Translations under genes and position numbers: made by a program
DNA from: Chiloscyllium plagiosum
Taxonomy: Eukaryota
NCBI RefSeq assembly: GCF_004010195.1
Contig: NC_057752.1
Location: forward strand, 1,255,036 to 1,319,035
DNA: 64,000 bases
Direction of reading: 5' to 3'
Shown here: piece by piece, positions 25,440 through 59,225 of the stretch
Position numbering within the stretch: position 1 is the stretch's first letter
Layout: each line of letters starts with the position of its first letter
The notes under the pieces: generated by a model
The model's database searches: none
Seen by the model: only the letters and a program-made list of their open reading frames with translations
What the model was told of the DNA's origin: nothing

Positions 25440-25922
25440 GGATGTAGGTTTGCTCGCTGAGCTGGAAGGTTCATTTTCAGATGTTTCATCACCCTACTAG
25501 GTAACATCTTCAGTGAGCCTCCGAATGAAGCACTGGTGGTGTCGTCCGCTTTCTATTTACATGTTTGAATTTCCTTGGGTTAGTGATGTCATTTCCTGTG
25601 GTGGTGTCATTTCATGTGGTGATGTCATTTCCAGTTCTTTTTCTCAGGTAAATGGGATCCAAGTCAATGTGTTTGCTGATAGAGTTTGGTTGGAATATCA
25701 TTCTTCTAGGAATTCTTGTGTGTGTCTCTGTTTGGCTTGTCCTAGAATGGATGTGTTGTCCCAGTCAAAGTGGTGTCCTTCCTCATCCCTATGTAAGGAT
25801 ACTAGTGAGAGTGGGTCATGTCTTTTTGTGGCTAGTTGATGTTCATGTATCTGGGTGGTTTTCTGCCTGTTTTGTCCAATGTAGTGTTTGTTACAGTTCT
25901 TGCATGATATTTTGTAAATGAC
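25440..25922 (-). mobile_element. Penelope-like element 3' fragment: GIY-YIG endonuclease plus terminal repeat with hammerhead core
   Basis: Minus ORF VIYKISCKNCNKHYIGQ...IHEHQLATKRHD...GHHFDWDNTSILG (GIY-YIG); downstream CTGAAGA...GAAAC core; second terminal-repeat copy at 58955-59225. Confidence 0.85.
25476..25516 (-). ncRNA. Minimal hammerhead ribozyme motif (putative) in Penelope 3' repeat
   Basis: UCA-CUGAAGA-U-GUUACC-UAGUAG-GGUGAU-GAAA-CA-UC-UGA; stem I UCA/UGA, 6-bp stem II. Confidence 0.55.
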
Positions 25923-25924
25923 AT

Positions 25925-26490
25925 ACAAGAGGCATGTGGAAAATGTAGTCAATCTTTGTGGAAACGCAAGATGAATATTGATGGTAAGTTGAGAACCATT
26001 CATGGAGATCATGTGGACCCAGCATGGGATGAACCAAAACAAGAACACAATCTATGTTTTGATCATGAGCTCACACCCATCATGTGGACCGAGTCAGATT
26101 TCAGTGTCTGACATCTTTGAGAAACCTTTTGTGAACCGAAGCCAAAACCTGACTGTACACCAAATTACGCAGGGAGTTAAAAAGGCGTTGTAAGTCAGTT
26201 ACCAACTTGCTTTGTAAATGTGGTTCAGAAAAGAACAGGGTTAGTGTCATTTGTGCACATTTACCAAGTGTTGTACATTTGCTTTTCCCTGTTGATGCTG
26301 TATAGTGAGTGAAACAGAAAATAGTTACATTTAAACAAAAAAACATTTAAAAGGAGGGAAGCAATGTAATGTATTCATAGACAATGAGCATGCATAGCGT
26401 GCAAAGATGCTGTTAAATGTGTGAACTGACCATCGGGTCTGTGAAGTTTTATGTAACCTGTACAATAAATCAGCATTTTAAAAACCTACA
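25925..26490 (+). mobile_element. Possible Gypsy LTR-retrotransposon 3' remnant
   Basis: Frame MNIDGKLRTIHGDHV resembles a Gypsy integrase tail; purine tract aaaggagggaag (~26350) followed by tgtaatgt... and AATAAA at ~26464. Confidence 0.3.
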
Positions 26491-27954
26491 TTCTGGACAC
26501 ATGGAATGGGGGTGGTGGCTGAACTGAAAAGCAGAGGATGAGACTGAAATTATAGGCAATAACTGGACTACACCAGGCTAGCTAAGTAAATACCAACTAG
26601 GCCCCACAGCCGAGACCAGCACCAGGACGAAGAGGGCAGGATGTAGGAAACCCTGAAAACTGGCCCCACATCCGGAAGCCCCATTCCCTCCACCACCAAC
26701 ACTTAGCAGCAGTAGCAGCAGTGTGCACCACCTCCAAGATCCCCTGCAGAAATTCACCACTGATCCTCCGACAGCACCTTCCAAACCCACAACCACTTCC
26801 ACCTGGAAGGACAAGGGCAGCAGATACAAGGGAACACCACCCCCTGCAAGTTCCCCTCCAAGCCACTCACCATCCTGACTTGGAATTATATTGTAGTTCC
26901 TTCAGTGTCACTGGGTCAAACTCCTGGAATTCCCTCCGTAAGGGCATTGTGGGCCAACCCACATGGACCTGTCATGAATGGATTACAAAACAACTGATAC
27001 ATATCAAAATGTATCTAGTGACTGTTTTAAAGCTACAGTAAAGCAGGCCAACCAAAATGGCAGCTATCATCACGGGGACTGAGCAATAACCTTCAGGAAC
27101 CTTCTCTAAAGTCGATGTCACCCAGGAAGCTTGGTCACTTGACTCCCAGCGTGTGGAATCCCACTGTTTTTTTCAATTGGACAGTTTTGAAATAGCAGAC
27201 AGATTCGGGGGTCAGTGCTGCTCCAAACCACATCTACTGACAATATTAACAGCACTAACTCTGGGTGAGAAGTGAAAAGCCTATGGCCCGTAAAAGGTAG
27301 CCACAAACCTGCACTCTGCAAGCACAAACAAACTTGCTTTTGTCAAATCAATGAAGCAGAAGTTGCATTGCAGCAAAGTTTCCTCAGAATGCTTTGAAAG
27401 CGAGAACCTAAAACACTTCAACTGCTTGTTGTTAGCCAATCCTCCCGTCCTCCAGCAAGGAATTCTGGAATGCTAACTGCATCTTTGGACACCATCTTAA
27501 GAGCAAGCACATTGATAAGCTGGTATCCCACAGTTGTTTTGTACTTAAGTCTTTACTTATTGAATTGTCTCTACATCTCCTTGTGGGTTTGGAACTGTGC
27601 TTGTCTTGTGGGTGTCCCCCAGAGAAACAAACCAACTCTGCTTTTTAACTTGACCATTGTGTCGTTGTGGTCCGTGCAAAGTCAGAGCCCACAAGTAGAG
27701 GGAGTGCGGGAAATATGGCCCACTGTGTTTTTCTAACATGTTGAGAACTAAATAATCATCTGCTTATGGACAGGTGATGAGAAGAGGGAGAGAGATTTGT
27801 TTTATAACCCTCAGTCTGTCTGCAATTACAACAGTTGGCCATGACCTTCTCGAGGGCAGTAGATGCCAGCTTAGCCAACATGCCCACATCTAACAAATAA
27901 ATCAAAACTCCTCTTGTGCAATATTACAGGAGCTCCCATCCTCTGCCTGAGAAA

Positions 27955-28450
27955 TTATAGGAAGGATGTTGTGAAACTGGGAAAGGTACAGAAAAGATTT
28001 ACAAGGATGTTGTAAGGTTATAAAGAGAGGCTGGATTGATTGGGACTTTTTTCCCTGGAACGTTGGAGGCTGAGGGGTGACCATATAGAGGTGCATAAAA
28101 TCATGAGGGGCATGGATAGGATAAATAGACAAGGTCTTTTCCCTAGGTTGGGGTGTCTAAAACTAAAGGGCATAAGGTGAGAGGGGAAAGATATAAAAGG
28201 GACCTAAGGGGAAACATTTTCACGCAGAGGGTGTTGCATGTATGGAATGAACTGCCAGAGGAAGTGGTGGAGTTTGGTACAATTATAACATTCAAAAGGC
28301 ATCTGGATGGGTCTATGAATAGGAAGGGTTTAGAGGGATATGGGCCAGGTGCTTGCAAATAAGACTAGATTAATTTAGGATATCTGGTCGGCATGAACAA
28401 GTTGGACCGAAGGGTCTGTTTCCGTGCTGTACATTTCTATGACTGCATGA
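27955..28450 (+). mobile_element. CR1 LINE 3' fragment
   Basis: RGERYKRDLRGNIFTQRVLHVWNELPEEVVE and family tail. Confidence 0.88.
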
Positions 28451-30394
28451 CCCATGTCTCTATGACCCTAGCTAACAGCTCGACAGCACATGGAACTGTA
28501 TATAAAGTCAGAGTTGACGCAGTGCTGAGCATAGAGATTGTTTAAAGATGGACTGCATGGGTAAATATTGCAATTGAACAAACAAATGTAGGTGCAAAAC
28601 AAAAGATTAGGAGGAGGAAGAAGTTTAAACATCACTGTGAGAAACAATAATACCTTGCTGAATGCAAAAGTGCGATGTTTCTACTCTACGCCCACAAACT
28701 TTAAAACAGAACCGACGATGTGCACTATTCTTAGATAAGCTGTTTGTGAAAACTCTACAGGTGTCCCATCCAAGTCTGGGGACTGTTTAGGCTGGGTGTA
28801 AAAGCCTTTGAGCCACTTGGCTGTAATTGCTGTTTGTCGGAGGGTCGTTTTGAGGAACAGAGCGTTGCAGTAACTCAAAGGAAACCTATGTTCCCTCTGA
28901 GTCTCCCAGCTCACATCACGGTGCAGCTAAAGCTGAGACAGGACATTTGGAAGGGACGTAGTTAAGGAGTCAATGGCGCCAACCTTGTTGCCATCGAGAC
29001 AGAAAGATGCAACAGTAAGTCTGCACAGTGATGCTGAGGTGAAGTGAGACTCGGAACAAGTGAGCCCCAACATCAGTCCAGTCAGTGGGGGATTCAGGAC
29101 CCCATTCAACTCAAACTGGGCCATGCCACTTCTGAACCAGTCAGGGTTAGCTCAATCTGGATCAAATCGCCAATAAAAGCCAAGTACTGAAGGTGCTGGA
29201 GATATGAAAGGAAAATGGAAAGTGCTGGAGAAGCTCAGCAGGTCTGTGGAGAGAAAAGCCAAGTTAATGTTTCGAGTCCAGTGACTGTTCTTCAGAGTCT
29301 GCGTCTTGAGGATGTAAGGGGCTATCTGGTTTCATAGATGGAATCCCACTGCTGCCCTCAATAGCCTGTCTGTCAGAATATGGTTCCACACAAGGGTATG
29401 TCAAGCATTGAAATGTAAAATAAGGAGCAGGAAGAGGCCATTCAGCCCTTCAATCCTGCTCGCCCATTCAATCTGATCATGGCTGATCATTCAACTCAGT
29501 CCCCTGTTCCCGCTTTCTCCCCATATCTTTTGATTCCTTTCTTCCTAAGAAAATCCTTAACTCCTTGAAAACATTCAATATTTTGGTCTCAACTTCTTTC
29601 TGTTGCAGAAAATTCCCAGCCTCTGACCTGCTCTTGCAGCCACTGTGTTCATGTGGTGAGTCCAGTTCAGTTTCTGCTCAATGGTAACCCCCAGAATGTT
29701 GTTAGTCGGTTGGGGGGGGGGGGGGGTTCAGTGATGGTAACGCCATTGAACGTCAAGGGAGCGATGGTTCGCCCAAACATGTTTCGATTCTATCCAAAAA
29801 TCATTTCTCAATTCAGAGGGGCAACACAATAACAGTGCGAAAGGAGGGAGGATTCAGGGGCGAGGCTGAAGCGAGAACCTCTGGAAGGCCCTGGAGTAAG
29901 TGGAGGGGTGGGTTGGGAGGGGCACAGAGACCTGTTACTGGGGGTGCGGCAGGCAGTGGAGAAGGGGAATGCAAGTTTTGCGCTACTGACTCATGTGAGG
30001 CTACATTTTCCAAGCGATTTCGCGCCAACAGGAGATCCTATGTGAAAAGGAAACAGTCGGGGGCTTTTGATTAAATTGCACAATAAATTATCATCGAACA
30101 GTGAGGAATGAGCAGCTGCAAGAGCGGGGATTAATGTTTAATGTAGCGCGGCGATGAGCATCCTGTATCACAAATGGAAAATGAGTTGAACCTATGTCCT
30201 CGGGTCAGACGACTGCTGCTGCCGGGAATGGCTGTATTTCTTCAGAGATCTCGAAGGCCACTTGACTTCGAACCCCAAGTCGCGCTGTGGCTGCGGGAAG
30301 TAACAGAATGAGCTTTGATTCTGAAAGAAGCAAAATGGTGTGTAGCCTGCCCCATCAATCTTCAAAGCTAGTTGCCGCTCACAAGCAGAGCCAC

Positions 30395-30408
30395 GTTGCC
30401 ATGGAAAC
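30395..30408 (+). promoter_or_regulatory. RFX X-box GTTGCCATGGAAAC
   Basis: One mismatch from the palindromic RFX site GTTGCCATGGCAAC, in non-repeat sequence. Confidence 0.45.
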
Positions 30409-31124
30409 AACAAGCTGCAGGTCATCCAGGCCTACACCACTCTTCATGTGCACTCATCTTGAAAGGAGATGTTGATGACAATTTAAATGATATAATCAGA
30501 CCCACTTTGCGTGGTTATACAGAGAGGAGTGTTGCTCTCAATTGATAATTAGATAGTGCGCGAGCAATTACAATTTGCTTTTAATCTGTTTATCCAGAGC
30601 AGTGTTCAATTAGACAGTAATGAACTGGAAAGGCTGGAGGATAATGAAATTAAAACTGGTACATCAAATGGCACCAGCAGGCATGTTAACCCATTCAGCG
30701 CAAGCTGGTACAATACATGCGTGTTGGAACCTGGCAGCAGTGGCTGGATACTCATTCATTCTAGATCATGGCTAATCTTCCACCACAAGGTATCATCCTG
30801 AGTTATCCCTATCTCACTTGCTGCCTTTAATCTCTAGAATTCTCCATCTTAAAAGTAAGGTATCATAGTCCCGCTCTCTCATGAGAGGGAGCTGACTCTT
30901 AGTGGGTTTAACCTGAGGGTCACCACAGCTCAGGAGAGATTCAGAAGGAGAGCCCTCCATGATATTCTCAGCTGGTGTGGCAAATGAACCCAAGTTGTTG
31001 GCATCACTCTGCGTTGCAAAGCAGTTGTCCAGCTAATCAGCTCTCTCCTATAGGCGATGACTGAACACCCACTTCCCTCCAGGGCAGAAAATTCCACAAA
31101 GATTCACCTCCATCTGAGTGGAGA

Positions 31125-31250
31125 AAGTGAGGCCTGCAGATGCTGGAGTTCAGAGCTGAAAATTGTGTTGCTGGAAAAGCGCAGCAGGTCAGGCAGCATC
31201 CAAGGAGCAGGAGGATCGACATTTCGGGCATAAGCCCTTCATCAGGAATC
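31125..31250 (-). mobile_element. Penelope-type terminal repeat with intact hammerhead catalytic boxes
   Basis: Minus strand GATTC-CTGATGA-A-GGGC-TTAT-GCCC-GAAA-TG-TC-GA. Confidence 0.7.
31214..31250 (-). ncRNA. Minimal type I hammerhead ribozyme motif (putative)
   Basis: CUGAUGA and GAAA boxes around a 4-bp stem II hairpin, followed by a GUC triplet. Confidence 0.55.
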
Positions 31251-32169
31251 CATCTGAGTGAAAAGGAATTCTTCTCCTGTCTGTTTCAAACTAGGACTGA
31301 AAGGAGCCATCAGTCCAAGCATGGTTTCAGTTCCAACAGCAAGTTGAATCTTTTTCTTGCAATGAGCTAATGTAACAGAGTGCCGGAGAATACGAGGGAC
31401 TGCAATGTGAAGTGTCATTTTGTATCGAGGAGTTGATGCGACATGAGGGCAGTGTTTTAACTGAGTTCCAATCGAGTGTATCTCTGAGCAGGCTCTGATC
31501 TGCTCCATGTTACAACATTGCAGCGTGGGCCATCAGTCACACTAATGGAACTATCGACATGTAGCCTGTCCTGGCAATTACGTCTTCAAATACACTGCAC
31601 CTCTCAGTAGACAGTGCCAAACCAAATAACCCGGAGCCTCACTGCACACTGTGTGTCGGATGTACCTTCAGCTGCCGACCTCAGCTGTTCAATTCCTTCC
31701 CTACAGCTCCCTGTCTGCTGCTGGCAACCTGCCTCAGTTTGACCGAGTGTTCCGACTTGCTCGCCTGTCCTCCTATCACCTTCGATGTCAAGCTTTGGTC
31801 CCAGCAAGTTCCAGTGGAAGAAAAGGTGCTACATCAATGCAAGTTGGCATTGCTCTCCAGCTGCCAGTACTCTTTCAGACCTTGGTACTTGTGGTGACGT
31901 GGAACCCGCATTCAAATTCTTGCCAGCATTCATCGCCCGTCTCCTTGCTGCCCAGGAACTGAGCAGCTTGCTCAGCCATTTCAGGGGCCAGTCACGATTC
32001 AACCCCATTGCTGTGTGGGTCTGCAGTCGTGTGGAGGCCAGCCTGGGTAAGGGTGGCAGTTTCCTTCCCTAAAGGGCTTTGGTGAACCCGATGGGGTTTC
32101 TGCAACAATCCATGATAATTGGCATGGTCACTGTTGCTGAGACTAGTTTATATTCCGCATTTAGCAAGA

Positions 32170-33317: not shown

Positions 33318-33450
33318 GTTTCGGGCAAAAGCCCTTCATCAGGGCTTCAGCATTCCTGATAAAGGGCTTTTGCCCGAAACATCGATTTTCCTGCTCCTCG
33401 GATGCTGCCTGATTTGCTGTGCTTTTCCAGCACCATACTCTTGACTCTAA
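33318..33450. mobile_element. Inverted pair of Penelope terminal repeats
   Basis: Arms 33318-33343 and 33355-33380 are reverse complements with 1 mismatch. Confidence 0.7.
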
Positions 33451-33919
33451 CCAGGGTTTAGTCTAACTGCAGCATAACCTCTGCATCCTTATACTCTGGT
33501 CCTCTCAATATAAGAGACAAGCATTCTCTTTGCTTTCTTGAATATTTCCTGCACCTGTTCGAGGTATTTTGAAGATCTATGTGCCCGAACTTCCAAGTCT
33601 GTCTGGACATCCACTGTATTTAACTCCATCTAGAAAGTACCTTGATCTTCCTTTGTCCAAAATGGCTAACCTACAAACATCTCCCTCAATTAATCTAGTC
33701 AGCAAGAGGCAACTTCACTCAAGGAGGCAATCTCTGGCTAGCCAGATGTCTCCAACTGTAATCCTTTCTGCTTGTCTCAGCCTTAAGCTCTGTCATTGTC
33801 TCTCTAAAGCAATCCGCCACTCTGTCTATCTCCCTCCTTTCAAACTTATCACTTTGACTGAGTTGTTGATCACCTATGATATCACCTCATGTCACTCACG
33901 TGAAGCATCCTGGGATGTT

Positions 33920-34770
33920 TTTTAATTTGATTTATTATTGTCTCATGTACCTAGGTACAGTGAAAAGTTTTGTTTTGCGTGCAGTCCAGGCAGACCATAC
34001 AAAGTGCATTAGGGTTATAGAACAGAGCGAGGAATACAATATTACTGCTGCAGAGAAGCTGCACAAAGAGTGAGGTCAATATTAAATGTAAAATTTGAGA
34101 GGTCCAGTCAGAAGTCTGATTACAACAGGGAAGAAGCTGTTCTTGAATCTGGTGGACTGTCTGTTTAAGCTTTTGTATCTTCTGCCCAATGGACGAGGTT
34201 GGAAGAGATGATAACTGGGGTGGGGAGGGGTCTTTGATGATGTTGGCTGCCTTCCCGAGGCAGTGGGAAGTGTAGATGGAGCCAATGGATGGAAGGTTGG
34301 TTTGGGTGATGGACTGGGTTGTGTTCACAACTCTCTGTAGTTTCTTACGGTCCTGGGCAGAGCAGTTGCTGTAGCAAGCTGTGATGCGCCCTGATAGAAT
34401 GTTTTCAATGGTGCATCTACAAAAATTGGTAAGTATCACTGTGGACACGCTGAATTTGCTTAGCCTCCTGAGAGAGTAGAGACATTGTTGTGCTTTATTG
34501 ACCGTCACATCAACATGGGTGGACCAGGACAGATTGTTGGTGATCGTCACTCCCAGGGACTTGATGCTGTCGACCCTCTCCATCTCAGCTCCACTGATAC
34601 AGACTGGGGTGTGCCCTCCACTCCCCTTCCTGAAGTTGATGACCAGCTCCTTGGTTTTGCTGACGTTGAGGGAGAGATTGTTGTCTTTACACCACACCAC
34701 CAAGCACTCCATCTCTTTCCTGTACTCTGTCTTATCGTTGTTTGAGACCCAGCCTACAACGGTGGTGTTG
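33920..34770 (-). mobile_element. Rex1/Babar-clade LINE, 3' portion
   Basis: WCKDNNLSLNVSKTKELVINFRK...LGVTITNNLSWSTH...KAQQCLYSLRRL...STRFKNSFFP. Confidence 0.88.
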
Positions 34771-35569
34771 TGTCATATTACGCAGGAAATAGAAGCACGG
34801 GGCTAGGCCTTTCGGCCGCGCAAGTCTGCTCTGTTGATCTTCTAACTGCATCATCATCCTGTGTCATCCCCATATCAATCCCGTATCCCTTGATATCATT
34901 AATATCGAGAAATCTCGGTCTTGAACATACTCAATAATTACTGCAAATGCTGGAATCTGTACTGAAGCCAACAAATGCTGGAGATCACAGTGGATCAGAT
35001 AGCATCCATGGAAAGAGAGCGAGCTAATGTTTCAAGTCTAGATGACTCGTTATCAGAGCTGAAGAGATGTCAGTAATTCCCTTCCCCCACTGGGATATAA
35101 CCTCCACATGTCCACCTGACCCCTAGTATCTCCCCCTTGTCCTCAATATAAGCCCAGCCATGTTTTTAAAATTCATTCATAGGACATGGGTGTCACTGGC
35201 CAGCCCAGCATTTATGGCCCATCCCTAATCACCCAGAGGGCAGATGGGAGTCATTGCTGTGGGTCTGGAGTCACATGTAGGCCAGACCAGGTAAGGATGG
35301 TAGTTTCCTTCCCTGAAGGGCATTAGTGAACCAGATGGGGTTTTCCCCAAAATGATTGAAGTTTTAATGAATTCAAACTCCACCACCTGGCATGGCATGA
35401 TTTGAACTGGGATCCTGGGAGTAGTAACTGGGTCTCTGGATTAATAGTCCCGTGATAATACTACCAGGTCATCACCACCTAGTGGGGCTAGAGGGTGCTG
35501 CAGCCAGCTTCAATGCCGTGTTCACTGCTGTCCACTTGGCTCATGACTGAGAGCGACACGCTCTCTCTG

Positions 35570-39202: not shown

Positions 39203-41665
39203 ACAAGACCTTAAGACATAGGAGCAGAAATTAGGCCATTCAGCCCATCAGGTCTGCTCTGCCATTCAATCATGGCTGATAAGTTTCTCATCCCCATTCT
39301 CCTGCTTTCCCCTGGTAACCCTTGATACTCAAGAACCTATCTATCTCAGTCTTAAATACACTCACTGACCTGGCCTCCACAGCCTTCTGTGGCAGTGAAT
39401 TCCATCGATACCCCACTCTCTGGCTGAAGAGGTTTCTCCTTATCTCCATTCTAAAAGGTCTCCCCTTTACTCTAAGACTATGCCCTCAGGTCCTAGTCTC
39501 TCCTACCATTGGAAACATATTCCCAACATCCACTCTGTCCAGGCCATTCAGTTTTCTGTATGTTTCAATTAGATCCCCCCTCCATTGAGTACAAACCCAG
39601 AGTCCTCAAACATTCCTCGTATGTTACGCTTTTCATTCCTGGGACCATTCTTGTGAACCTCCTCTGGCTCCAGGGCCAGTACATCCTTCCTGAGATTATG
39701 GGGCCCAAAACTGCACACAACACTCCAAATGTGATCTGACCAGGGCATTAAAGAGCCTCAGAAGTATATCCCTGCTTTTATATTCAAGCCCTCTCAAAAT
39801 AAATGCCATCATTGCATTTGCCTTCCTAACTACTGACTCAACTTGCATGTTTACCTTGCACGTATCCTGGACTAGAACTCCCAAGTCTCTTTGCACTTCA
39901 GATTTCTGAATTTTCTCCTCATTTAGAAAGTAGTCCATGCATCTATTTTCCTACCAAAGTGCATGACCTCACTTTCCCATGTTCTACTCCATCTGCCACT
40001 TCTTTACCCATTCTCCCAACCTGTACAAATCCTTCTGCAGCCTCCCCGCCACCTCAATGCTACCTGTCCCTCTACCTGTCTTTGTATTGTCTGCAAACTT
40101 AGCCAGAACATCCTCAGTCCCTTCATCTCGATCGTTAATATATAAAATGAAAAGTTGTGGTCCCAACACTGAGCCTTGTGGAACACCACTTATCACCAGC
40201 TGCCATCCTGAGAAGGACCCTTTTATCCCCACTCTCTGCTTTCTGCCAGACAGCCAAGCTTCTATCCATGCCAGCACCTTGCTTATGACACCAAGGGCCC
40301 TTATCTTACTCTGTAGCCTCCTGTGTGGCACCTTGTCAAAGGCCTTCTTAAAGTCTGGGTAGATAACGTGCATTGGCTCTGCTTGGTTTAACCTGCTTGT
40401 TACTTCATCAAAGAATTCTAGCAGATTTGTAAGGCATGACCTCCCCTTGATGAAACCAGGCGGACTTAGCCCTATTTTACCATACGCTTCCAAGCATTCA
40501 GAAATCTCATCCTTCACAATGGATTCCAGAATCTTACCCGTGACTGAGGTTAGGCTAATTGATCTGTAGTTTTCCATCTTTTGCCTTACTCCCTTTTTAA
40601 ACAGGGATGACACATTAACAATTTTCCAGTCCTCTGGTACCCTCCCTGATTGTAGCGATTCCTGAAAGATCACCACTAACGCCTCCACTATCACTTCATC
40701 TATGTCCCTTAGAACTCTGGGGTGTAGTCCATCTGGTTCAGGAGATTTATCCACCTTCAGGCCATTCAGTATTTCTCGCACCTTCTCCTTGGTGATGGCC
40801 ACCAAACTCAGCTGTGCCCCCTCACTCCCTTGAATTTTTTGGGATATTACTCGTGTCTTCCACCATGAAGACTGCCCCAAAGTAATTATTCAGTTCCTCA
40901 GCCATTTCCTTGTTCCCCGTTACTATCTCTCCAGTGTCATTTTCCAGTGGCCCAGTGTCCACTTTTGCTACTGTTTTGCCCTTTATATATCTAAAGAAAC
41001 TCGTACAGTCTTCCTTTATATTACTGGCTCGCTTATCCTCAGATTAATCTTCTCCCTCCTTATTTCTTTTATCGTTGCCCTCTGTTGGTCTTTGTAAGCT
41101 TCCCAATCCTCTAGTTTCCCACTGTTCTTCCCCACATTATATGCTTTCTCTTTTGCTTTTATACTACCCCTGACTTCCCTCGTCAGCCATGGATGGTTGC
41201 CTCACCCTCCCTGTACCATGCTTCCTTTTTCTCGGCATGAATCTCTGTGTCTCCTGAATTACTCCCAGAAACTCCAGCCATTGCTGTTCCACTGTCTTTC
41301 CTGCTGGGCTCTCCTCCCAATCAATTCTACCCAGCTCCTCCCTCTTGCCTCTGTAGTTGCCTTTATTCAGCTATAATCCGGTTACCTGATTCTATCTTCT
41401 CCCTCTCAAACTGCAGAGTAAATTCAATCATATTATGATTACTGCCTCCTAAGTGTTCCTTCACTTTAAGCTTCCTTATCAAGTCTGCCTCATTGCACAA
41501 CACTAAATCCAGTGTTGCCTGTTCCCAGTGGGCTCCACCACAAGCTGCTCCAAAAAGCCATCTCATAGACATTCCACAGATTCCTTTTCTTGCAAACCAT
41601 TACCAACCTGATTTTCCCAGTCCACCTGCATATTGAAATCCCCCAAGATCACTGTAACATTGCAT
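39203..41665 (-). mobile_element. CR1 LINE, ~2.46 kb, 5'-truncated, with RT domain (disabled)
   Basis: ORF 39984-40880: NYRSISLTS, DFKKAFDKVPH, GVPQGSVLGPQLF, KFADNTK (expected FADD); end of endonuclease at 41363-41572. Confidence 0.92.
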
Positions 41666-41666
41666 T

Positions 41667-42950: not shown

Positions 42951-45080
42951 GATATCTAAATGCAGAAAACACACCCAATTTGTACGGAGCGAGCTCCCAC
43001 AATCAGCAGCATCACTATGGCTTATGCTTTTGTGGTGTTGGTGAAAGTGATAAATATTGGCCAGGGTGAACTGCCCTGGTATGGTTTGCTTGGAAGACAG
43101 TGCCTGATAGCACAGCGCTCCCTCAGTCTAGACGAGTTGGGGAAGACCGGACTTGAACCAACAACCTTCACAGCAGGGGTGAGTGTGCGACCTCTGAGCC
43201 TGGGGACACATCAGCAAAGGAGGCACTGAGTTTGCTCTGAGCCCAAGGTAGACCGAATGCGTTTGTCTAGTCCGCCGCCCCCACTCTCTCTCTCGCTCCT
43301 CAACCTCCACAGTTTCTGAAATGGTTATCTTCGCAATCGGAGATTTTTTTCATCAGAACTGCTATGCCTTTATCTACTAGCTCTGTTACAAGTGAGTTCT
43401 GATCGCCAGATTAGTGCATCAGACAAGACCATCTGGAACTGGTGTGAGAAAAATAAAATTACTCAGCTCGCTAAGTTTACTGTGTGATCCACGTGGGCAT
43501 CTATTTGTTGATGAGCAAAACTAGGTCTGCTGCTTTAATTTCCCGCATTTCAAACAACTCACATTCCTTCAAACAGGAATTGAGATGAATTTCAGATTGG
43601 GAACTTTGCAACTAAATGCATGAAGCGGGGACTCTGACAGCAAACCAGTAAATGCCGGGGAAGCTGCACAATATGGTTTCAGAGCTATTGGACCAAAGAT
43701 TGTATGATCTGGGAGCAGAAGGAGGCCATTCAGCCCATTGAACCTGCTCTGCCACTTAATACTATCTTATCTCACCTCCACTTTCCTGCCTGCTCTCCAT
43801 AACGCTGCAACCCATTATTAATTTAAAATCTGTCTATCTCCCCCTCATGTTTACTCAATGACCCAGTGTCCACCATACTCCAGGGGGATTGAATTTCACA
43901 GGTACACAACACTTTGAGAGAAGCCATTTCTACTGAATTCTGTCTTAAATCTGTGACCCTTATCTTAAAGCAATGACCTCTCATTCTGGATTGCCCTACG
44001 TGAGAAAACATCCTCTCCACATCTACTGTGTCAATCCCCTTTAGCATCTTAAATTCCTCAATTAGATCTCCTGTCATCCTTCTCAGAGTTGCTTGAAGAC
44101 AGAGGATTCCCACTAAAAGACCAGGGCTCAAACAATGCGAAGGGTGTACAGACCCTGTAAAGTTCTGAGATGTTTTAATGTACTGTAAGTAAGAAGTTAA
44201 AACAGATGTCACCACAGCATTGCTCTGGGATAATTCATTTAAGATAAACAGCAAATACACGACAGCAAACTACCTGAACGGTGTTATTCTGTCCAGTCAC
44301 ATTGCGATCGCCAAAACAATTGCTTTCACAACTGCATGAAATCCATTGGTGATCTAAAGCACGCAGTACAGAGCATGGAGAAGAGACTTGGGCAACTGTC
44401 GATATATATACATGATTAAAATAACCGTGACATACACGGTCAGGAAGACAAATGGAGTGCTGGCCGTTATATACAGAGGTTCACCAGATTGATCCCAGAG
44501 ATGAGGGGTTTGTTGTATGAAGAGAGATTGAACAGTTTAGGCCTATAACTGTCTGGAATTTAGAAGAATGAGAGGAGATCAAATGGAGGGCTTATTAAAG
44601 GTGGGGATAAAATGGATGTGCAGTGGATGCTTCCTCTTATGGGGGGTTCTAGGATGACAGGGCAAGGGGTAGAACAGGGTGGAGGAGAAACTACTCGTCC
44701 CAAAGGGTTGTGGAATCTGTGGAATTTGTTCCCCCAAAGTGCAGTGGACAGTGAGCAAATTCAAGGAGTGAGACAGATTTTTAATTCGTAATGGGGAGGG
44801 GGCAGGAAAATGGGGGTGAGGAGCACGTCAGCCATGATCGAATGGCGGAGCAGACTCGATGGACTGAATGGCCTAAGTCTGCTCTTATGACATTATAATG
44901 TGGGGAAGGGGTGCAGCATTTAAGAGGGTCAAAGTCCTTCCTCAGCTGGTTAGAGACATCTGGAAAAGGACAAAAAACCAAAGTGCAGATGCTGGAATCC
45001 AAAGTAGACAGGCAGGAGGCTGGAAGGACACAGCACGCCAGGCTTGTAACCCTTCTTCACCTGACACACTGACTTCTCCA

Positions 45081-45913
45081 CCTCCTGATGCTGCCTGCCT
45101 TGCTGTGTTCTTCCAGCCTCCTGCCTGTCCCTCCTGATGCTGCCTGCCTTGCTGTGTTCTTCCAGCCTCCTGCATGTGCCTCCTGATGCTGCCTGGCTTG
45201 CTGTGTTCCCCCAGCCTCCTGCCTGTCCCTCCTGATGCTGCCTGGCTTGCTGTGTTCCCCCAGCCCCCTGCCTGTCCCTCCTGATGCTGCCTGCCTTGCT
45301 GTGTTCCCACAGCCTCCTGCCTGTCCATCCAGATTCTGCCTGGCTTTCTGTGTTCTCCCAGCCTCCTGCCTGTCCCTCCTGATGCTGCCTGCCTTGCTGT
45401 GTTCCCCCAGCCTCCTGCCTGTCCCTCCTGATGCTGCCTGGCTTGCTGTGTTCCCCCAGCCTCCTGCCTGTCCCTCCTGATGCTGCCTGCCTTGCTGTGT
45501 TCTTCCAGCCTCCTGCCTGTCCCTCCTGATGCTGCCTGGCTTGCTGTGTTCCCCCAACCTCCTGCCTGTCCCTCCTGATTCTGCCTGGCTTGCTGTGTTC
45601 TCCCAGCCTCCTGCCTGTCCCTCCTGATGCTGCCTGGCTTGCTGTGTTCCCCCAACCTCCTGCCTGTCCACCCTGATGCTGCCTGGCTTGCTGTGTTCCC
45701 CCAGCCTCCTGCCTGTCCACCCTGATGCTGCCTGCCTTGCTGTGTTCCCCCAGCCTCCTGCCTGTCCCTCCTGATGCTGCCTGCCTTGCTCTGTTCTTCC
45801 AGCCTCCTGCCTGTCCCTCCTGATGCTGCCTGCCTTGCTCTGTTCTTCCAGCCTCCTGCCTGTTCCTCCTGATGCTTCCTGGCTTACTCTGTTCCCCCAG
45901 CCTCCTGCCTATC
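45081..45913 (+). repeat. Minisatellite, 17 x 49 bp (cctcctgatgctgcctg[gc/cc]ttgctgtgttcccccagcctcctgcctgtc)
   Basis: Unit starts recur every 49 bp from 45081 to 45865. Confidence 0.95.
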
Positions 45914-45916
45914 CCT

Positions 45917-47870: not shown

Positions 47871-49989
47871 ATGGAGTCCTTGCCTGGTCTGGATCTACAT
47901 GTGACTCCAGACCCATAGCAATGTGGTTGACTCTTAACAATTGGGAAGTAAATGCTGACCAAGCCAGCGATGCCCTTACCCAGTGAATGAATGCTTTCAA
48001 AAGAAAACTCTCTGCCCCCAGAACTCCAGCTGTTATAAATGTGAAATTCAACACCCCACCATGTGAAATTCCAAGAGGCTGGAAAGAGGCCAGTTTCCAG
48101 ACTGATGACGAGCATTAATTGATTACATGGAGGATCGATGCTGGTCAGGGCTGATTAAATCCTACTCAGTCCCCACACTCAGCCCCTGCTCCATCTAACA
48201 GGTTATCATTCACTTTCTTGCCTGAAGTAACTCTTTTAAGCAATTCTTCAGCATCCCTTTCCCCAGGTTTCAAACTGACGCAGACATGATGGCCACCATT
48301 ACCTCCTCTGTGTCATTTATTTTCTTCGCTTCAAAATAACAACTTGAGTGTTTTCGGTGATGCTCCATTGGAGTGTTCTAAAATCCATCCAACACGCAGA
48401 CTATGTGAGAATCCCTTCACCAGGAGTTAAAACCAAGACCCCGACAGGCGCTGACTGGCACCGACAGACACCATCTGATGCCAACAGGCATTGGCAGATG
48501 CCAGCAGACACTGACAGGAATTGGCAACCTTTTGTCAGGTACCGAACTATTCAGTTGTCTGAAACCTGGCCCCAAACCAATTTCCACGGCAACTGGGTAT
48601 TCATCTGCCTGCTACTGCGCCAGAGGGGCAGCGTGCTTTGACCATCAGAAAATGGCCTCCAATGGAGGCATCTGATGGTGTAGTGCTATTGACACTGGGC
48701 TAATAATCCAGACACCCAGGTAATGTTCTGGGGACTTGGGTACAAATCTCACCATGGCAGATGCCAGTCTCCGCTGATACTGAGGCAATCCATGTTCAAA
48801 TACACCAAGATCTGGACAATATCCAGGCTGGGGCTGTTACTGGCAGATAACATTCATGCCACACAAATGCCAGGCAACGACTATCTCTAGTAAGAGACAG
48901 TCTAACCACCACCCCTTGTCATTCAATGGTGTTACCATTGTTGAATGCCCCACTATCATCCTGGGATTACCAAGGACCAGAAACTGAACTGGACTCACCA
49001 CATAAATACAGTGGCTACAAGGGCAGGTCAGAGATCAGGAATACTGCAGCGAGCGACTCACCCCAAAGCACAAGTCAGGAGTGTGATGGAATACCCCCCC
49101 CCCCTTTGCCTGGATGGGTGCAGCTCCAACACTCAAGAAGCTTGACACTATCCAGAAAAAGCAGTCTGCTTGATTGGCCCTACATCCACAAGCATCTACT
49201 CCCAGCACCACCCACACCTACATCAAATATCATCAGTACCTACAACACAAGGACTGCAGTGGTTCAAGAAGGCAGCTCACCACCACCTTCTCAATGAGAG
49301 ATGGGCAATGAATGCTGGCCTGGCCAGCGACACCCACATCCTGTGAAAGAATGAAACTAGATACTTGCTGAGCTGCATAAAGCAAGGGTACCCACCCAGG
49401 CACTAGGGCTCAAGGCTGAATTTACAAGGGTTTACTTATGTTTACACAAGTGGACCAGCCTTCTATATCAATAGATCCTGAAAGCAGATGGGAGATTTCT
49501 TCAAATGTTAGTCTGTTCACAATATGAACACTGTAAATACATGCAAATAGTATAAAACATTACAATCAGCTTGTGACATAGTTATGACAGCTTTGCAAGT
49601 CAGCTTTACAAAGTTCAAAGACAATAAAAGGCTCCTGTTCCATTATTTTGTTCATTATTTCTTAAGGTGCTGTCCAGTCAATGATGCTTTCCAGTCCAAA
49701 GATGTGCAAGTTAGGTAAATTGGTCATGCTAAATTGCCCGTAGAGTTAGGTGCATTAGTTAGGGGGAATGAGTCTGGGTGGGTTACTCTTCGAAGGGTTG
49801 GTGTGGACTAGTTGGGCCGAAGGGCCTGTTTCCACACTGTAGGGAATCTAATCTAATCTAATCAAATACTTTTGTTTTTAAGTGCAGTCACCTTTTGTCA
49901 TACAGGAAATTGGGCAGCCAATTTGTGCACAGCATGATCCTACACACAGCAACAGAAACAAAAACAACCAGGTTCCCTCAGCAGGTCAG

Positions 49990-52150: not shown

Positions 52151-53502
52151 ATAATCACCTGCTTATGCAAACCTTCTTATGTGTCAGGATAGCTCAAGGT
52201 ACTTTGCATACAATGCGTGACTTTGAGATACACTGACTGTTGTAACTTAAGTCATTAAGGGAAAAATAACAAGCCCATGTTATTTCAGCAGTCTCTAGAT
52301 CCTACAGTTTGCATAACAGCTTATTGCATTTCTGAAGCGGGAGATCACAGACCAATTTATACAGAAGCTGCTGTCAAAGTGATAACCCCAGATTCCAGAG
52401 ATCTGTCCTTTGATGATTGCCTAGCCATTACTTTGCAAAGGAAACTCAGCTCCAGTGACTGCAGTGCCACGTCAAAGATGGGCTGCGAAGATATTGTTCT
52501 GTCCTTTCATATTTGACCCGTTATGTCCTCAGACGGAGTGCTGCTTTCTGTTCAAGAGAAATACACAGAGTGGGTCCCTACAAAGAACTGCAAACACAAG
52601 CTCTCACCCCCTATGGGGGTGGGGTTGGGGATGAACTCTGGTTTAAACTGTCTCATTGCTTGGGGAGGGGGGTGGGGGTGGTTGCTTGCCACGTAGAGAG
52701 AAAGACGGACTTGCATTCTGATAGCACCTTTCATTTCATCACATCCCAAGGAGATTACCAGCCATTGGCGTCCTTGCGAAGTGCTGTCACTGTTGGGATG
52801 CAGGGTGATTTGTGCATCCAGCAATGGCGTGAGTGAGTAACGTCTCATGATTGCAGCCAGGTTGATTGAAGTGTAAATAATGGCTCCCAGGACATTGGGA
52901 TTAACTCCCAAGCTCCTCATCCAACAGATCATTGGTGCCACCAACAAGAGCAAATGGCGGTGTGGTAGCCTCTCACTGGGTGAGGAATGCTCTGAGGGTG
53001 TGATCAAATCTCACCATGACAGCTTATAGAACGTTCAACTCCAGTTACTAAATCTGGAGTTGAAGTGATGGCGATTATAAAGGTACCATTCATTGTTGGA
53101 AAACACCTATCTTGTTCACTAATGTCCATAAAAGGAATGACAAAGTGGCCATTTTGGCTGTATCTCGAGGATATGCTGATGATAAAGTAACTACACAGAG
53201 CTTGGGCAGAGGGAACGCAGGCTGCTCCCAGCTGATATTCCCACCCTGGGTACACACTGCTGAACCGGACACTCAGCTCATTGGTGTTTGACTTGGCTTA
53301 GGTTCAAAACAAATGCTAGTGAATTCATAGTTTGCAGAGAGGTCCTGGTTGTTCCTGAAGCATGACGAAGGTGTCACATAAACAGAAGAGCAGGCTCTTA
53401 TGTGTGACTGCACCTCTTTCAGACCTGCACACCTTCCTGTCTCTCAGGCACATCTCATATCCCCATGCAGTCTGAACAGCTTTCACTCACTCGCTCACTT
53501 TC

Positions 53503-55945
53503 TTTTTTTTATATATAGATATTTTGATTGAAAATTTAACATGTTTTTACACATTTACAAAAGAAAAGTATTAAAAAACCCCAAGTTTAAACATTGATAT
53601 ACAGTTAAATCTTAAATAAATAATAACCAAAATCTATCAAACAAGATAAAAAAGAAATACCAAGAGAAAATAAACTCAACTAACTACTCATCTAACCTAC
53701 AACTAACCAGAGGGTATGATTAAAACTCTTACACTATTCAAGAGAAAAAAAAAACCCAATTGGTAACATAGAAATTGAGTATTGATATACATGCTCGGAC
53801 TGTGTTAACATCAGATCACAACAAAACCCGTATTCGTGCAGGATTCCTCTCCTAAGGGACCCCGGACCAGCCAGGTTCACCCTCTCAATTAAACAAAGGC
53901 CCTTGTTAGGATAACTGAGATATCTGTATTTGTGTAATTCAAGAAGGGCTGCCATATTTTCTGGAGTAATTCGTTTTTTCTCTCAGTGCACCATATTTGT
54001 AAGGAAGTCAGGGGGAGTATATCCCATAATTATTCTGTGCCAACTCGAAAGTCCATGAGGGCCCTCAGCCACCCAGTTTACCAAAATGTTTTTCCTTGCA
54101 CAGAAAGAGAGAATCTCTTCCCTGTCATAATTTCAGGTGTTCTTTAATCAATAAATGTGTCTCCTATAGGAGAGCTATATCGATCCTTTCTTTCTTGGGA
54201 TTTGATAATATTCTCCTTCTTTTGATTGGTGAATTACTCCCCATGACATTCCAGGTGCACCATTTAATCAACCCGATCACCCATAATCACTGGGCAAGTC
54301 CAAGACCCCCCGGCAGAAGAAACCCTATCCAAAACATCCCGAGCATAGAGCATATAAAACTCACAAAAATAAAAGCTCTTTAATACATTCAGATCAATAT
54401 AATATAAAACTATTTCTAAATAAAAAAATATAAAACGCATTTAAACAGAGATCTTCCCCCTTATTCCCAGGGGGCATCACTTCCTTTCCAAAAAACCCAT
54501 CATAACCTCTCCCAACCAGTGCCCCACCCTTGGCCCAGGCACCCCACGATAGGATAAAGAAAATTCAAGTATACTACTGAGCTAGAACTAACAGGGAGTA
54601 CCCTATCCCCCACCCACACCAACACCTGGGTATATTTGGTAATATTAATACCATATATGAACATATGACTATAAAATTACAGTCTCAGCAAATAATAATT
54701 AAATATAGCAATACAAAATAACAGGGGAAAACAACCCCGCTCCTAAGGACAAAGATAAAATAGGATAAGGTAACCACCTTCCCCCCATCTACATTAACTA
54801 GACCCCCTGGCCTATATATAAAAAAAAGGGGGAGAAAACCGCTAAGTGAAGAATAAATAAATAAACCCATCTTCCCACCCCCCGGAGATAATATTAAATA
54901 GTAAGTTAATGAAAGGAAACAAAAAAAGGGGGTACACCGGGGTGGGGGGAGGGCAAAACAACATCAATTAACTCTTATAAATTTATCTAAGAGAGTCCAA
55001 AAGTTCCTTGGCCTTCTCCGGTGATCCGAAGTTATACACGGACCCTTCATGGCTGAAGCGTAGTGTAGCTTGGTAGCGCAAGGAGTACTGAATGTTTAAG
55101 TCCCTTAAACGCCTCTTCGCTTCATCAAATGCCTTCCTCTTTCGGACTAAAGCTAGGAAAAAGTCCTGAAATAACATAATCTTGGATCCTTTATAAATCA
55201 CGGCTTGGGGATCTTTCCCAAGATTTCTGGAAGCTTCCAAGAGCATCTGCCTCTCCTTGTAGCTCTGCAGCCAGAACAGGACCGGGCGGGGACGCTGGTT
55301 CGAGCTGGGCCTGCGTATTGCGACCCGGTAGGACCATTCCACCCTTACCTGGCCTGATCCAGCCTCCAGATTTAAAAGCTGTGGAAGCTACTGCTTGAGG
55401 AACACTAAGCTGGTCTTCCTCTTCCCGTTCGGGAAGGCCCAGCAAACAAATATTGTTTCAACAGCCTCGAGAATCGAGGTCGTCAGTGTGATTCTCTAAG
55501 GTCCGGACTTGCTGTTCAAGAGTCCGGACCCGATCCACGGCCGATTCTGCTATGATCTCAGAGGACGTGGCCTTTAGCTCTGCCCCTCCGACTCAGCGCT
55601 CAATTTCTTCGATGTCTCAGCCTTGCTTTTGTAGCGCGGCCGAGAGAGAGTCCCATCGGCTTTGGGACTCTTCAATGAAAGCATCGATCTTCGCATCGAG
55701 TTTAGAGATGATTTCCACAAGGCTCGTCGCTGTAGGTACGTCCCCCGGGGCGGCTGTGGACACCTCTGCTGCAGCTGGGGAGGGGTTCCTGCCTGCTGAG
55801 AACTGCGGGCTCCTTTCCCCCTAGTCATTTTTATAGGAGACTAGACTGTTTAAATTTAAAACTATTTTAAATGATTTGGTGAGTGTGGTGGAGGTGGGTG
55901 GCCCACTTTGCCCAGGTCTTGGGAGGAGCACTATAGACACAGACG
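53503..55945 (-). mobile_element. L1-clade element: ORF1 (55828-54983, frameshifted), spacer, ORF2 reduced to its N- and C-termini, 3'UTR and poly(A)
   Basis: ORF1 GLPE...RPRPVL...IMLFQDF-LALVRKRKAFDEAKRRL...YSLRY-ATLRF; ORF2 start WNVMGSNSPIKRRRI...DIALL*ETHL; ORF2 end ARKNILVNW...KIWQPFLNY. Confidence 0.88.
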
Positions 55946-56574
55946 TAAAACAAAGGCAGAAGAACAAAGAAAAAACAGTTCCCAACTTAACAAGAAGGGC
56001 TGTAAAGTGGTCCGCCATGGGCCTGGGGGCCAGGCGTGCGCCCCCTTCACTGTGCCACTGCTGTGGAACAAAAGTTGCCACTCTTTGGCACCATCTTACC
56101 TCCACTGATACTGTCGCCACTAAGTCCTCACTGGACTATGCCAATGCAGATGCCACCGTTGCTGCCAGGTACATGATACTCTATGCCACTTTGGGCCTAC
56201 CTTGTCAATGCAGCCACTGGCAAAGGACCAGGGATCATTGCACAAAGGTTAGAGGTCAGCAGTTCCTTCACTTCCCAGAGAATGGCGGACTGAGGAAGCT
56301 GGCTGTCACCATGACTATTTCATCACATGCAGTTCCTGGCTAGGGTGGAGATAATTGGATATAAAAGATGGGTGGAACAATAAATAAGATAAATTTGTGG
56401 TCAGTTCTTCTGTCCTCAAGATTTCGATTACTCAAGTGGGTGGAGTGGAATTTTCTCAATGAAGCAAGTGTATCCCATCACATTCTTGACTTGGGCCTTG
56501 TTGATGGTGGACAGGCTTAAGGGAGGCTGCAGGATTCCCAGCCTCTGACCTGCTCTCGCAGCCACATAGCGAAA

Positions 56575-56710
56575 AAAACCAAAAGAACGGCGGATGCGGG
56601 AAATCAGAAACAACAGAAATTGCTGAAGAAACTCAGCAGGTCTGGCAGCATCTGTGGAGAGAAAGCAAAGTTAACGTTTCAGGTCCAGTGACCTTTCCTC
56701 AAAACTGATG
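56575..56710 (-). mobile_element. Penelope-type terminal repeat (third family), mutated hammerhead core
   Basis: Minus strand TTGAGGA-AGGTC-ACTG-GACCT-GAAACGTTA; same family at 29180-29297 and 61445-61580. Confidence 0.6.
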
Positions 56711-57224
56711 GTCGCTGGGAAAAGTTTGGTACATATGCAGAAGATCAGCTGGGGAATAAACAAGAGGCGGAGATAGAGCCCAAAGAGAGAGGAGGCAGGC
56801 AGACAAAGGAGTGGGTAAAGGTCAGTCTGGGGGCTATTAGTGGCTGACAATGGTTTATGTTTAGTAGTAGCCCATGTGATGACAAGGTCTGCTGTGTGGG
56901 GGTGGGGCCTGAGACAGATGTTGGCCAGGGAACAAGGTGGGGTGTTGAAGGGGCAGGTAACTGGAAGCTCAGGGCCTGTTTTTCAGGCAGAGTTCCACAA
57001 AATGGTCACCGAGTCCGCACTACAGCAGATCACCACATTGATATGGTGAGTCCAGTTCAGTTTCTGGTCAATGCTAACCCCCAGGATGTTGATAGTTGGT
57101 TTTGGGGGAGGGTCTTCCATGATGGTAGTGCCATTGAATATCAAGGAGAGATGGTACAGAGATGGCCATTGCCTGACACTTACAGACTGCGAATATTACT
57201 TGTCAGGATTAGAGGGGTGCTGGA

Positions 57225-57772
57225 AAAGGGCTTATGCCCGAAACGTCGATTCTCCTGTTCCCTGGATGCTGCCTGACCTGCTGCGCTTTTCCAGCAACAC
57301 ATTTTCAGCTGCTGGAAAAGCACAGGTCAGGCAGCATCCAAGGAGCAGGAAAATCGAGGTATCAGGCTCTCCATGACTACCTGGTCAGGTCCACACCCCC
57401 CAACAACCCACCCTTCCGTCCTGGCACCTTCCCCTGCCACTGCAGGAATTGCAAAGCCTGCGCCCACACCTCCTCCCTCACCTCCATCCAAGGCCCCAAA
57501 GGAGCCTTCCACATCCAAAGTTTCACCTGCACTTCCACACGTCATTTACTGTATCCGTTGCTCCTGATGCGGTTTCCTCTACAGTGGGGAGACCGGACAC
57601 CTTCTCGCAGAGCACTTCAGAGTACATCTCCGGGACACCCACACCAATCAACCCCACCGCTCTGTGGCCAAACATTTCAACTCCCTCTCCCATTCTGACG
57701 AGGACATGCAGGTCCTGGGCCTCCTCCACCGCCACTCCCTCACCACCCGACGCCTGGAGGAAGAATGCCTCA
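57225..57772 (+). mobile_element. Penelope-like element fragment: inverted terminal repeats followed by a Cys-rich linker and GIY-YIG endonuclease
   Basis: PGTFPCHCRNCKACAH...FTCTST/HVIYCIRCS*CGFLYSGET...HLRD...VAKHFN. Confidence 0.85.
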
Positions 57773-58954
57773 GCCTCTGAAGATCTCTACCCTTGGGAGG
57801 GGTGTCTCTGTTCCGCGATCGGTCAAATAATCAACGGGAATGCAGACTGCTTCGGCAAGATTTCACAGTTTATTTCGACACTGGGCACAGGTTTGTCCAG
57901 CAACACAGACGTTAACAGCTTCTTTGGAGAAGCTGCAACTTCACTTGGAACAAAGGCAAGTTTTATATGTTTCTTAAGGAATAGTACAGCCTTAATTGCA
58001 GAGTAAATCCAATAAAGTGTAATAAAAATGACATTAGACAGCAGGTTAATCCAATGATATTTCCTGGGAAACAAAGTTGTTTACCACCTATTATCTCTCC
58101 GCACCTGCATTTCAAGGTTTACTGGGATAGTTAGTAATATCCTATCTAGCTTAGTTAATTCCATACTGGGAAGGCTCCAATGTCTGCTTTATCTTTTGAT
58201 TCAGTTAGCTCAGCAAGGCAGGAATGCAGCTTTAAGCAGGGTGAGAAGCCATTTTAAACAGTGTTAATTTACAGCCTGGAGCCATTTTTTTATGTTACCT
58301 TGCATTGAGAAGCCATTTTGCGGTTAATAAAAGCATGCACAAAATGGTCACTCCTGACAACAGCCTAAATCCAGATTTTAGATCCTCAGCTAGAGACCCT
58401 CCAACCCCATGGTATCAATGTGGACTTCACCATTTTCCTCATTTCCCCTCCCCCCACCTCACCCCAGTTCCAACCTGACCTACTGTGCTTTTCCAGCACC
58501 ACTCTAATCTTGACTCTAATCTCCAGCATCTGCGATCCCACTTCTGCCTACATTACTTGTCAGCCCAAGCCTGGATATTGCCTAGACCTTGTTGCATTTG
58601 GACATGAGCTGCTTCAGTATCTGAGTCATTAATGATGCTGAACATTGTTCACCGAAGATATTGTACATGCTCACTTCTGACCTTATGATGGAGGGAAGGT
58701 CATTGAAGCAGCTGAAGATAATTGGACTATTATACATTTCTGACGAGCTGGAAGTTTAGAGGTGGTCATGGGCTGCTTGAGAACCGCTCTCTAATGCGCT
58801 GAGTTCATCTGCAATGTCTTCTTATATAGTGGACGGGTCTGCCAATACTCATTGTTTGCACAGGAACAGGTGGTGTCCATTCAGCCCCTTGAGCCTGCTC
58901 AGCCAATCAACAAGACCATGGCTGCTCTGTGACCTGACTCCACATCAACAATGA

Positions 58955-59225
58955 CAGTTTTGAGAAGATTTGTAGCTCAGGTTGAGGTTCTGGTTGTAGG
59001 TTTGCTCGCTGAGCTGGAAGGTTCATTTCCAGATGTTTCGTCACCATACTAGGTAACATACTAGTGGGCCTCTGGGCAAAGCACTGCTGATGATTCCTGC
59101 TTTCTATTTATATGTTTGGGTTTCTTCGGGTTGGTGATGTCATTTCCTGTTCTTTTTCTCAGGGTGTGGTAGATAGGGTCTAACTCTATGTGTTTGTTGA
59201 TAGAGTTCCAATTGGAATGCCATGC
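58955..59225 (-). mobile_element. Penelope 3' terminal repeat (same family as 25440)
   Basis: gtaggtttgctcgctgagctggaaggttcattt-cagatgtttc-tcacc-tactaggtaaca is shared with 25445-25506. Confidence 0.8.

Follow-up and report, generated by a model that had tools for sequence, protein, structure and literature searches.

Hammerhead folds of Penelope-like elements

Minimal type I hammerhead ribozymes (min-HHRs) were described in 2014 by Cervera and de la Peña (PMC4209133) in the pseudo-long terminal repeats (pseudo-LTRs) of metazoan Penelope-like elements (PLEs). The analysis reported here concerns a 64,000-nucleotide stretch of the shark Chiloscyllium plagiosum (NCBI RefSeq assembly GCF_004010195.1, contig NC_057752.1, positions 1,255,036 to 1,319,035 of the forward strand; hereafter the window), in which short motifs of the same layout are scattered. 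The motifs represent, with a probability of roughly 0.78, folds of the minimal type I hammerhead within PLE end-pieces, likely of both the Neptune and the Poseidon type, the scattered copies likely being dead stubs in which the ribozyme is a passenger. The window offers an ordinary case, from a shark, of an RNA class known since 2014.

In the accessible sections of PMC4209133, the min-HHRs share with the motifs of the window the CUGANGA and GAAA boxes, a base between positions 9 and 10.1, a palindrome in place of stem III and a short stem I. They likewise form many variable families per genome, mostly as single dispersed motifs from truncated elements and with opposite-strand pairs among them, and they are reported for the Poseidon and Neptune elements of fish and to cleave weakly as dimers. 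The window differs in that one of its families, called A below, has a U-U opposition in stem I, and in that no shark was found in the main text parts or supplement file 2 of that paper. The coelacanth and Xenopus are credited there with 4,000-9,000 motifs, and the read depth obtained here suggests a far larger family, although depth is not copy number.

For endonuclease-bearing (EN+) PLEs, an insertion unit with 5' truncation, an inverted 5'-truncated copy and an optional 30-40-bp tail is described by Craig et al. in 2021 (PMC8557442) and Arkhipova et al. in 2013 (PMC3846280). Truncated copies, inverted end-pieces beside fragments of open reading frames (ORFs), head-to-head junctions and duplications of about 10 bp are common to these elements and the window, whereas in the available parts of the two papers the junction is not tied to stem I of the ribozyme. 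The Poseidon element PAc of Anolis carolinensis (Frangieh et al. 2024, PMC11167929) has an AUG where stem II begins and is cut 26 nt downstream, as against a predicted cut 28 nt downstream of the AUG with which stem II opens in the two family C copies of the window. The uncut RNA of PAc serves as the template, and in the available sections of that paper RNA-seq ends are absent at the cut site, as they are here. Cleavage of PAc is protein-assisted in vitro, whereas the window copies are known from sequence alone and families A and B are likely Neptune-type. Finally, the non-LTR retrozymes (Cervera and de la Peña 2020, PMC7229834; Li et al. 2026) are, like the copies in the window, devoid of ORFs, hammerhead-bearing and derived from or related to PLE terminal repeats; they differ, in the sections available, in forming tandem arrays with a core in every unit and in yielding circular RNA, and no such arrays occur in the window.

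An expansion of PLEs in shark introns has been reported (10.1101/443036, available in part). In the literature covered, which leaves out many journals, Repbase and Dfam, no report was found of these motifs in sharks or of a boundary at stem I. For the lizard element, transposition in vitro takes place without cleavage; to our knowledge, Naiads carry no hammerhead motif. A family so abundant supplies many junctions for asking whether stem I sets the point of truncation or fold-back.

Cores, stems and links to the element ORFs

A loose descriptor, consisting of an exact CUGANGA box, 0-2 nt, a stem of at least 4 bp and GAAA, found 4 sites in the window, where 40 dinucleotide shuffles gave a mean of 0.375 and a maximum of 2. 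One of these exact-box sites, at 48251, has neither homology to a repeat nor CG-U-H after GAAA; it was rejected as a family member and is probably a chance match. With one mismatch allowed, the loose descriptor finds 16 sites, not clearly above chance (shuffle mean 9.4, maximum 16). A fuller minimal-hammerhead descriptor, devised after the sites were seen and adding CG, CA or UG followed by U-H after GAAA, found 6 sites, all 6 of them inside repeats, where 300 shuffles gave a mean of 0.26 and a maximum of 2. One extra base separates A9 from stem II, and a scan without that base returned 0 sites because its descriptor was too strict. A profile built from 13 seed copies recovers A- and B-type pieces throughout the window, and 17 spans, family C included, make up about 4.1 kb or 6% of it. 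A core is present in part or whole at 14 sites, every one of them decayed: both boxes are exact at 4, ACGU is kept at 2 (56702 and 57228), and the two features never occur together.

An original prediction, made from the letters of the window alone, had proposed that the motifs are minimal type I hammerheads whose stem III is reduced to the palindrome ACGU, that they derive from Penelope terminal repeats and that most are mutated. This proposal is supported, and the eight sites that it named, together with two near CD63, exist with the stems quoted for them. Its statement that the quoted cores keep their boxes is too broad, as the first box has decayed to CUAGUA in the core at 59030-59065, C3 has become U at 56703 and G8 has become A at 35057. 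At 57228-57250 the stem II side exists, whereas CUGANGA is lost and an inverted end-piece takes its place; the example at 33318-33380 does contain a core, yet proves to be two cores, head to head on opposite strands.

Pairing was assessed in 10 of the 14 cores, registered by hand, the sites at 33342, 2403, 3170 and 57228 being excluded as each lacks one side of the motif. Stem II shows Watson-Crick pairs at 30 of 40 positions, compared with 16.7 for shuffled partners and with 8 or 11 for slid strands, and stem I, which had gone unmentioned in the prediction, shows them at 28 of 40, against 15.3 shuffled and 10 in either slid register. These 10-copy counts are inflated by the kinship of the copies; with one representative per family (n=5), 16 of 20 positions pair in stem II and 18 of 20 in stem I (p=0.008 each). 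The letters of stem I differ between copies (AGUU/AACU, AGCU/AGCU, GGUC/GACC, UCA/UGA and CCA/UGG), the unpaired base between positions 9 and 10.1 is found in 10/10 registered cores, and the dinucleotide after GAAA is CG, CA or UG in all ten, which is the pattern of CpG decay. In folding calculations, which are no evidence on activity, stems I and II lie 0.1-4.7 kcal/mol from the lowest-energy fold; the six-base word with ACGU pairs with itself, words with ACAU do not, and AUGU is marginal.

The families with GGGC and with AGUC/AGGUC in stem II have one downstream sequence in common, so that the copies fall into two clades (A, A2, B and B' in one, C in the other) and not into the three or more families originally counted, while the covariation claimed for stem II stood. 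The tblastn alignments of protein P0003 (25922-25440 and 59225-58992) run through both family C cores, and the predicted position of a core just downstream of a GIY-YIG ORF is therefore right for both copies. Protein P0001 matches 57363-57765, adjoining an inverted family A end-piece, and 58413-58472, from which family A end sequence continues directly. The location in a terminal repeat is thereby direct for family C, indirect through the end sequence for A, and for B given only through the end sequence common to both. Relatives of the ORF fragments carry reverse transcriptase motifs and a GIY-YIG domain, and the nearest relatives of both endonuclease fragments are shark proteins. A CX2-5CxxC linker before the endonuclease is the Neptune criterion in the available text of PMC8557442; a CX4CxxC linker occurs both in P0001 and in frame 57342-57695 of the window and, on inspection by eye, a CX2-5CxxC linker is absent from P0003 and P0004, which makes A Neptune-type and C Poseidon-type. 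By this linker, the sole criterion applied to the sequences, families A and B likely belong to the Neptune clade and C to the Poseidon clade.

Some further observations concern the ORF ends and flanks of these families. In the family C copies, at 25510-25516 and 59061-59067 (both on the minus strand), a frame ending in ...EAH stops at U4-G5-A6 of the first box; in the 59064 copy this frame is continuous with the endonuclease end, while P0003 passes through the core in a different frame. An open AC-rich frame of the 59064 copy (58955-58990, minus strand) extends beyond the stop of the 25513 copy and may be the optional PLE tail. Three 18-bp direct repeats lie at 25583-25635 within the family C ORF end, and a similar duplicated peptide occurs in P0003. 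Upstream of a family B core, a pyrimidine-rich stretch of about 280 nt (56710-56990, minus strand), of which the window holds no second copy reaching a core, is a candidate for a family B 3' untranslated region. The ORF at 29706-30074 beside the core at 29295 was rejected as a PLE ORF, with no tblastn match to P0001-P0004.

Family A was also profiled across four sequencing runs (X1, X9 and X16 of DNA, from three organisms, and X21 of RNA), aligned to 31010-31390 at 80% likeness; the variant and joint figures that follow are those among the ones listed, with 16 further variant rows and 56 further joint rows lying outside them. In all three DNA runs the depth reaches millions across 31114-31256 but only tens beyond it, consistent with the great abundance that had been predicted, depth not being copy number. 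Within the ribozyme, the listed variants comprise N7 (22-38%), two bases of loop II, transitions at CpG and position 2.3 of stem I (31248), with none at the 17 non-CpG core and stem II positions as against 3 of the 6 free positions (p=0.011). The ACGU palindrome, so seldom kept in the window, is nonetheless the majority form of family A, being restored in 60% of the contig depth of the three DNA runs and in 1,579 of 1,831 RNA reads. The variant at 31248 (19-25% of DNA depth) would restore an A-U pair in stem I of family A; it was excluded as a compensatory change because hairpin junctions may explain it equally well. RNA reads cover the family A unit on both strands without an end cluster, which fits passive transcription. 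At 31230, 91 RNA reads of X21 leave the element within loop II into a common flank (agreement 0.85), which suggests one expressed locus with a copy truncated there. Among the runs listed by a search of sequencing runs no RNA holder was found, and neither a DNA motif scan nor a P0001 scan found a related locus in metagenome contigs.

Truncation, fold-back and competing explanations

The stubs are best read as 5'-truncated or fold-back insertion products of two PLE clades. The copy at 31121-31249 is bounded by 12-bp duplications, starting exactly at the first base of stem I and ending at the PLE tail, and pieces of the same family vary in length, some being without a core and some joined to an ORF. 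Fold-back pairs are found at 33318-33454, 44984-45129, 57202-57367 and 61451-61682. In the contigs, all 11 strand-switch joints among those listed re-enter at 31245-31251, and the joint from 31212/13 to 31248-50 accounts for 43 of the 52 listed strand-switch contigs of X1, 42 of 54 of X9 and 47 of 63 of X16, joints farther upstream being invisible with the reference 31010-31390. The inversion joint listed most often falls at stem I, which suggests a fold-back of the cDNA through the mirror image of that stem, and a preferred stop or fold-back at stem I probably yields the truncated stubs. Self-priming was proposed earlier for the inversions of PLEs (PMC3846280, in its available part).

By analogy with published work on PLEs, cleavage by the motif of an active parent would be predicted to follow GUC or GUU and to take place either in a dimer, with two ACGU words pairing as stem III, or with the aid of the element's protein. 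At a nicked target, the reverse transcriptase would begin within the 3' end of a transcript left uncut; both internal priming on uncut RNA and protein-assisted cleavage are described in the available part of PMC11167929. Copying would proceed back through the ribozyme and would often stop, or the cDNA would fold back, once stem I is copied; the outcome would be stubs of 50-130 bp and hairpins, later decaying, with CpG going first. The present copies are presumably inactive. A bolder version, in which the hammerhead acts as a transposition structure, so that snap-back or stopping of the cDNA after stem I fixes the 5' end and mass-produces the 129-bp unit as a now self-sustaining high-copy non-autonomous shark family, is speculative and on present evidence unlikely.

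Several observations weigh against reading the copies as decayed PLE ends with a hammerhead. Duplications of at least 10 bp flank only 2 of the 18 spans tested (12 bp and 10 bp), the other 16 having none, and a separate short template would also account for the recurrence of a 5' end at stem I. Stem I of family A is weak, consisting of two pairs, a U-U at the third and one more pair, and in two family A copies the lowest-energy fold differs from the hammerhead fold. The contrast in listed variants between the core and the end sequence is not significant (0/17 vs 12/89, p=0.21). Rfam at E<=1 returned 8 matches on the window, none of them a hammerhead; the microRNA matches among them were rejected as inverted PLE end-pieces with scores far below gathering, and for annotation it has to be noted that such stubs give false microRNA-hairpin matches and are missed by the Rfam hammerhead models. 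Pfam matched no GIY-YIG domain on the endonuclease pieces of the window, the GIY-YIG scores of full-length relatives lying just below its cut-off, and family B, like B' and A2, has no ORF link of its own within the window. RNA read ends are not piled up at the cut site, in a poly(A) single-cell library read to about 2% and thus a weak test.

The main rival takes the unit of about 129 bp, from stem I to the tail, to be a separate non-autonomous retroelement, SINE-like and non-tandem, that is passively transcribed in host RNAs and recopied in trans by a Neptune-type protein. What speaks for it is the recurrence of a 5' boundary at stem I: the 12-bp duplication of the 31121-31249 copy begins exactly at the first stem I base, the head-to-tail joints of the three DNA runs show an equal length of 129/130 bp, and in the window the upstream sequence of A- and B-type copies is never common to two. 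The agreement of letters beyond 31249 (0.33-0.43) is, moreover, no better than that past the end of the tail (0.34-0.43), both strands of the unit are covered by RNA reads, and Chlamys is reported to have non-autonomous PLE derivatives (PMC8557442, in its available part). Against this, majority letters beyond 31249 are alike in the three DNA runs, suggesting a class of longer copies, and contig counts are biased toward copies with unique flanks. The family also includes pieces that are shorter, that lack a core or that are joined to an ORF, no part differing from PLE terminal sequence has been demonstrated, and no promoter-like head of its own was seen in the unit. Such a separate family is quite unlikely.

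The original prediction had instead raised the possibility of a retrozyme-like family. On the retrozyme account the copies would be monomers of non-LTR retrozymes, with tandem units cut by dimeric hammerheads, circularised and reverse-transcribed. Li et al. (bioRxiv 10.64898/2026.07.22.740005, in its available part) sampled a single chondrichthyan and found retrozymes in it, and head-to-tail joints of 129/130 bp do occur, in 7 of 63,807 contigs of X1, 5 of 56,734 of X9 and 6 of 85,607 of X16. Such joints are nevertheless rare, and none of the 13 tandem repeats listed in the window bears a core. A cut monomer would be expected to run from 1.1 to C17, whereas the bounded copy has an uncut core at its 5' end; the cut site shows no listed depth step or end cluster, and the core has the minimal form of PLEs, whereas published retrozymes have the canonical type I (PMC7229834, in its available part). 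None of 3,443 RNA reads lies at the listed head-to-tail joints, in a poly(A)-selected library that is a weak test for cleaved or circular RNA. The retrozyme account is very improbable. The 49-bp x17 satellite at 45081-45916, the only one in the window built from this sequence, which arose from PLE end sequence at one fold-back arm, was rejected as a retrozyme, being without a core.

A chance hammerhead-like pattern in a repeat end, free of selection for ribozyme structure, could be argued from the missing Rfam match, the weak stem I of family A and the descent of the copies from few ancestors, through which shuffles overstate the enrichment, but it is scarcely credible when both stems stay paired across families with differing letters, one layout recurs in two clades with unrelated end sequences, family-wide variants land on N7 and loop II, and the layout published in the available part of PMC4209133 is matched down to the base between 9 and 10.1 and the palindrome at 15.2-16.2.

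Features of the window

Table 1. Coordinates of hammerhead-bearing and related PLE pieces, and of the CD63 exons, in the window.
Feature	Position	Strand	Match
Family A piece, decayed and without GAAA, upstream of the first CD63 exon located	2398..2467	+	
CD63 exons, five mapped	2876-3064, 7259-7354, 8014-8148, 10427-10522, 12590-12655	+	
Family B piece in CD63 intron; 3' half of core deleted	3161..3255	+	
Family A2 stub in CD63 intron, antisense; boxes decayed, stem I GGUC/GACC	4226..4349	-	
Old family A stub, first box decayed	16459..16582	-	
Family A insertion, 47 bp, without core, 10-bp target-site duplication	17574..17620	-	
Broken GIY-YIG C-terminus running into core and terminal repeat	25440..25922	-	tblastn P0003 E 6e-44
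Family C (Poseidon-type) core, boxes exact, stem I UCA/UGA, ACGU to ACAU	25477..25516	-	
Family B stub; core 29262-29299, exact boxes, ACAU	29181..29300	-	
12-bp target-site duplication flanking family A stub 31121-31249	31109..31120 (left), 31249-31260 (right)	+	
129-bp family A stub with 5' strand of stem I, core and stem II (GGGC/GCCC), followed by PLE end sequence	31121..31249	-	
Predicted cut site of family A stub 31121-31249	between 31218 and 31217	-	
Family A head-to-head pair, opposite strands, 11-nt spacer	33318..33454		
Minus-strand core of this pair, end sequence lost	33318-33343	-	
Plus-strand core of this pair, G8>A, end sequence kept	33352-33387	+	
Family B' stub with G8>A; core at 35022-35060, AGCU/AGCU in stem I	34936..35063	-	
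Family A2 fold-back remnant, then 49-bp x17 satellite of end sequence without core	44984..45916	+	
Family B stub; core 56669-56706, ACGU intact, stem I AGUU/AACU, C3>U	56583..56710	-	
Family A piece with the joint to a short inverted end-piece inside stem II; GAAACGUC present, CUGANGA lost	57202..57310	+	
Inverted family A end-piece 57310-57358, then broken Neptune-type linker (CX4CxxC) and GIY-YIG fragment 57363-57765	57310..57765	+	tblastn P0001 E 1.8e-29, 2.5e-22
Neptune-type ORF end 58413-58472 fused to family A end sequence, core deleted	58413..58536	+	tblastn P0001 E 1.9e-4
Second family C copy: ORF end and decayed core 59029-59067, stem I CCA/UGG	58992..59225	-	tblastn P0003 E 1.5e-23
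Decayed family B fold-back pair; core 61538-61577 on minus strand	61451..61682		
Family B end-piece without core	62804..62881	+	

The DNA is of shark type, the tetraspanin exon at 2876-3064 being identical to CD63 proteins from two carpet sharks; the first coding exon of CD63 and one short internal exon were not found in the window at the identity cut used. Two degenerate copies had been placed in CD63 introns: the one near 4320 is indeed intronic, as is the piece at 3170, whereas the one near 2400 is so only if the first coding exon lies to the left of the window. The window also holds broken LINE-type reverse transcriptase sequence (Pfam RVT_1) at 33951-34769 and 39984-40886 (minus strand), with many similar pieces among its ORFs.

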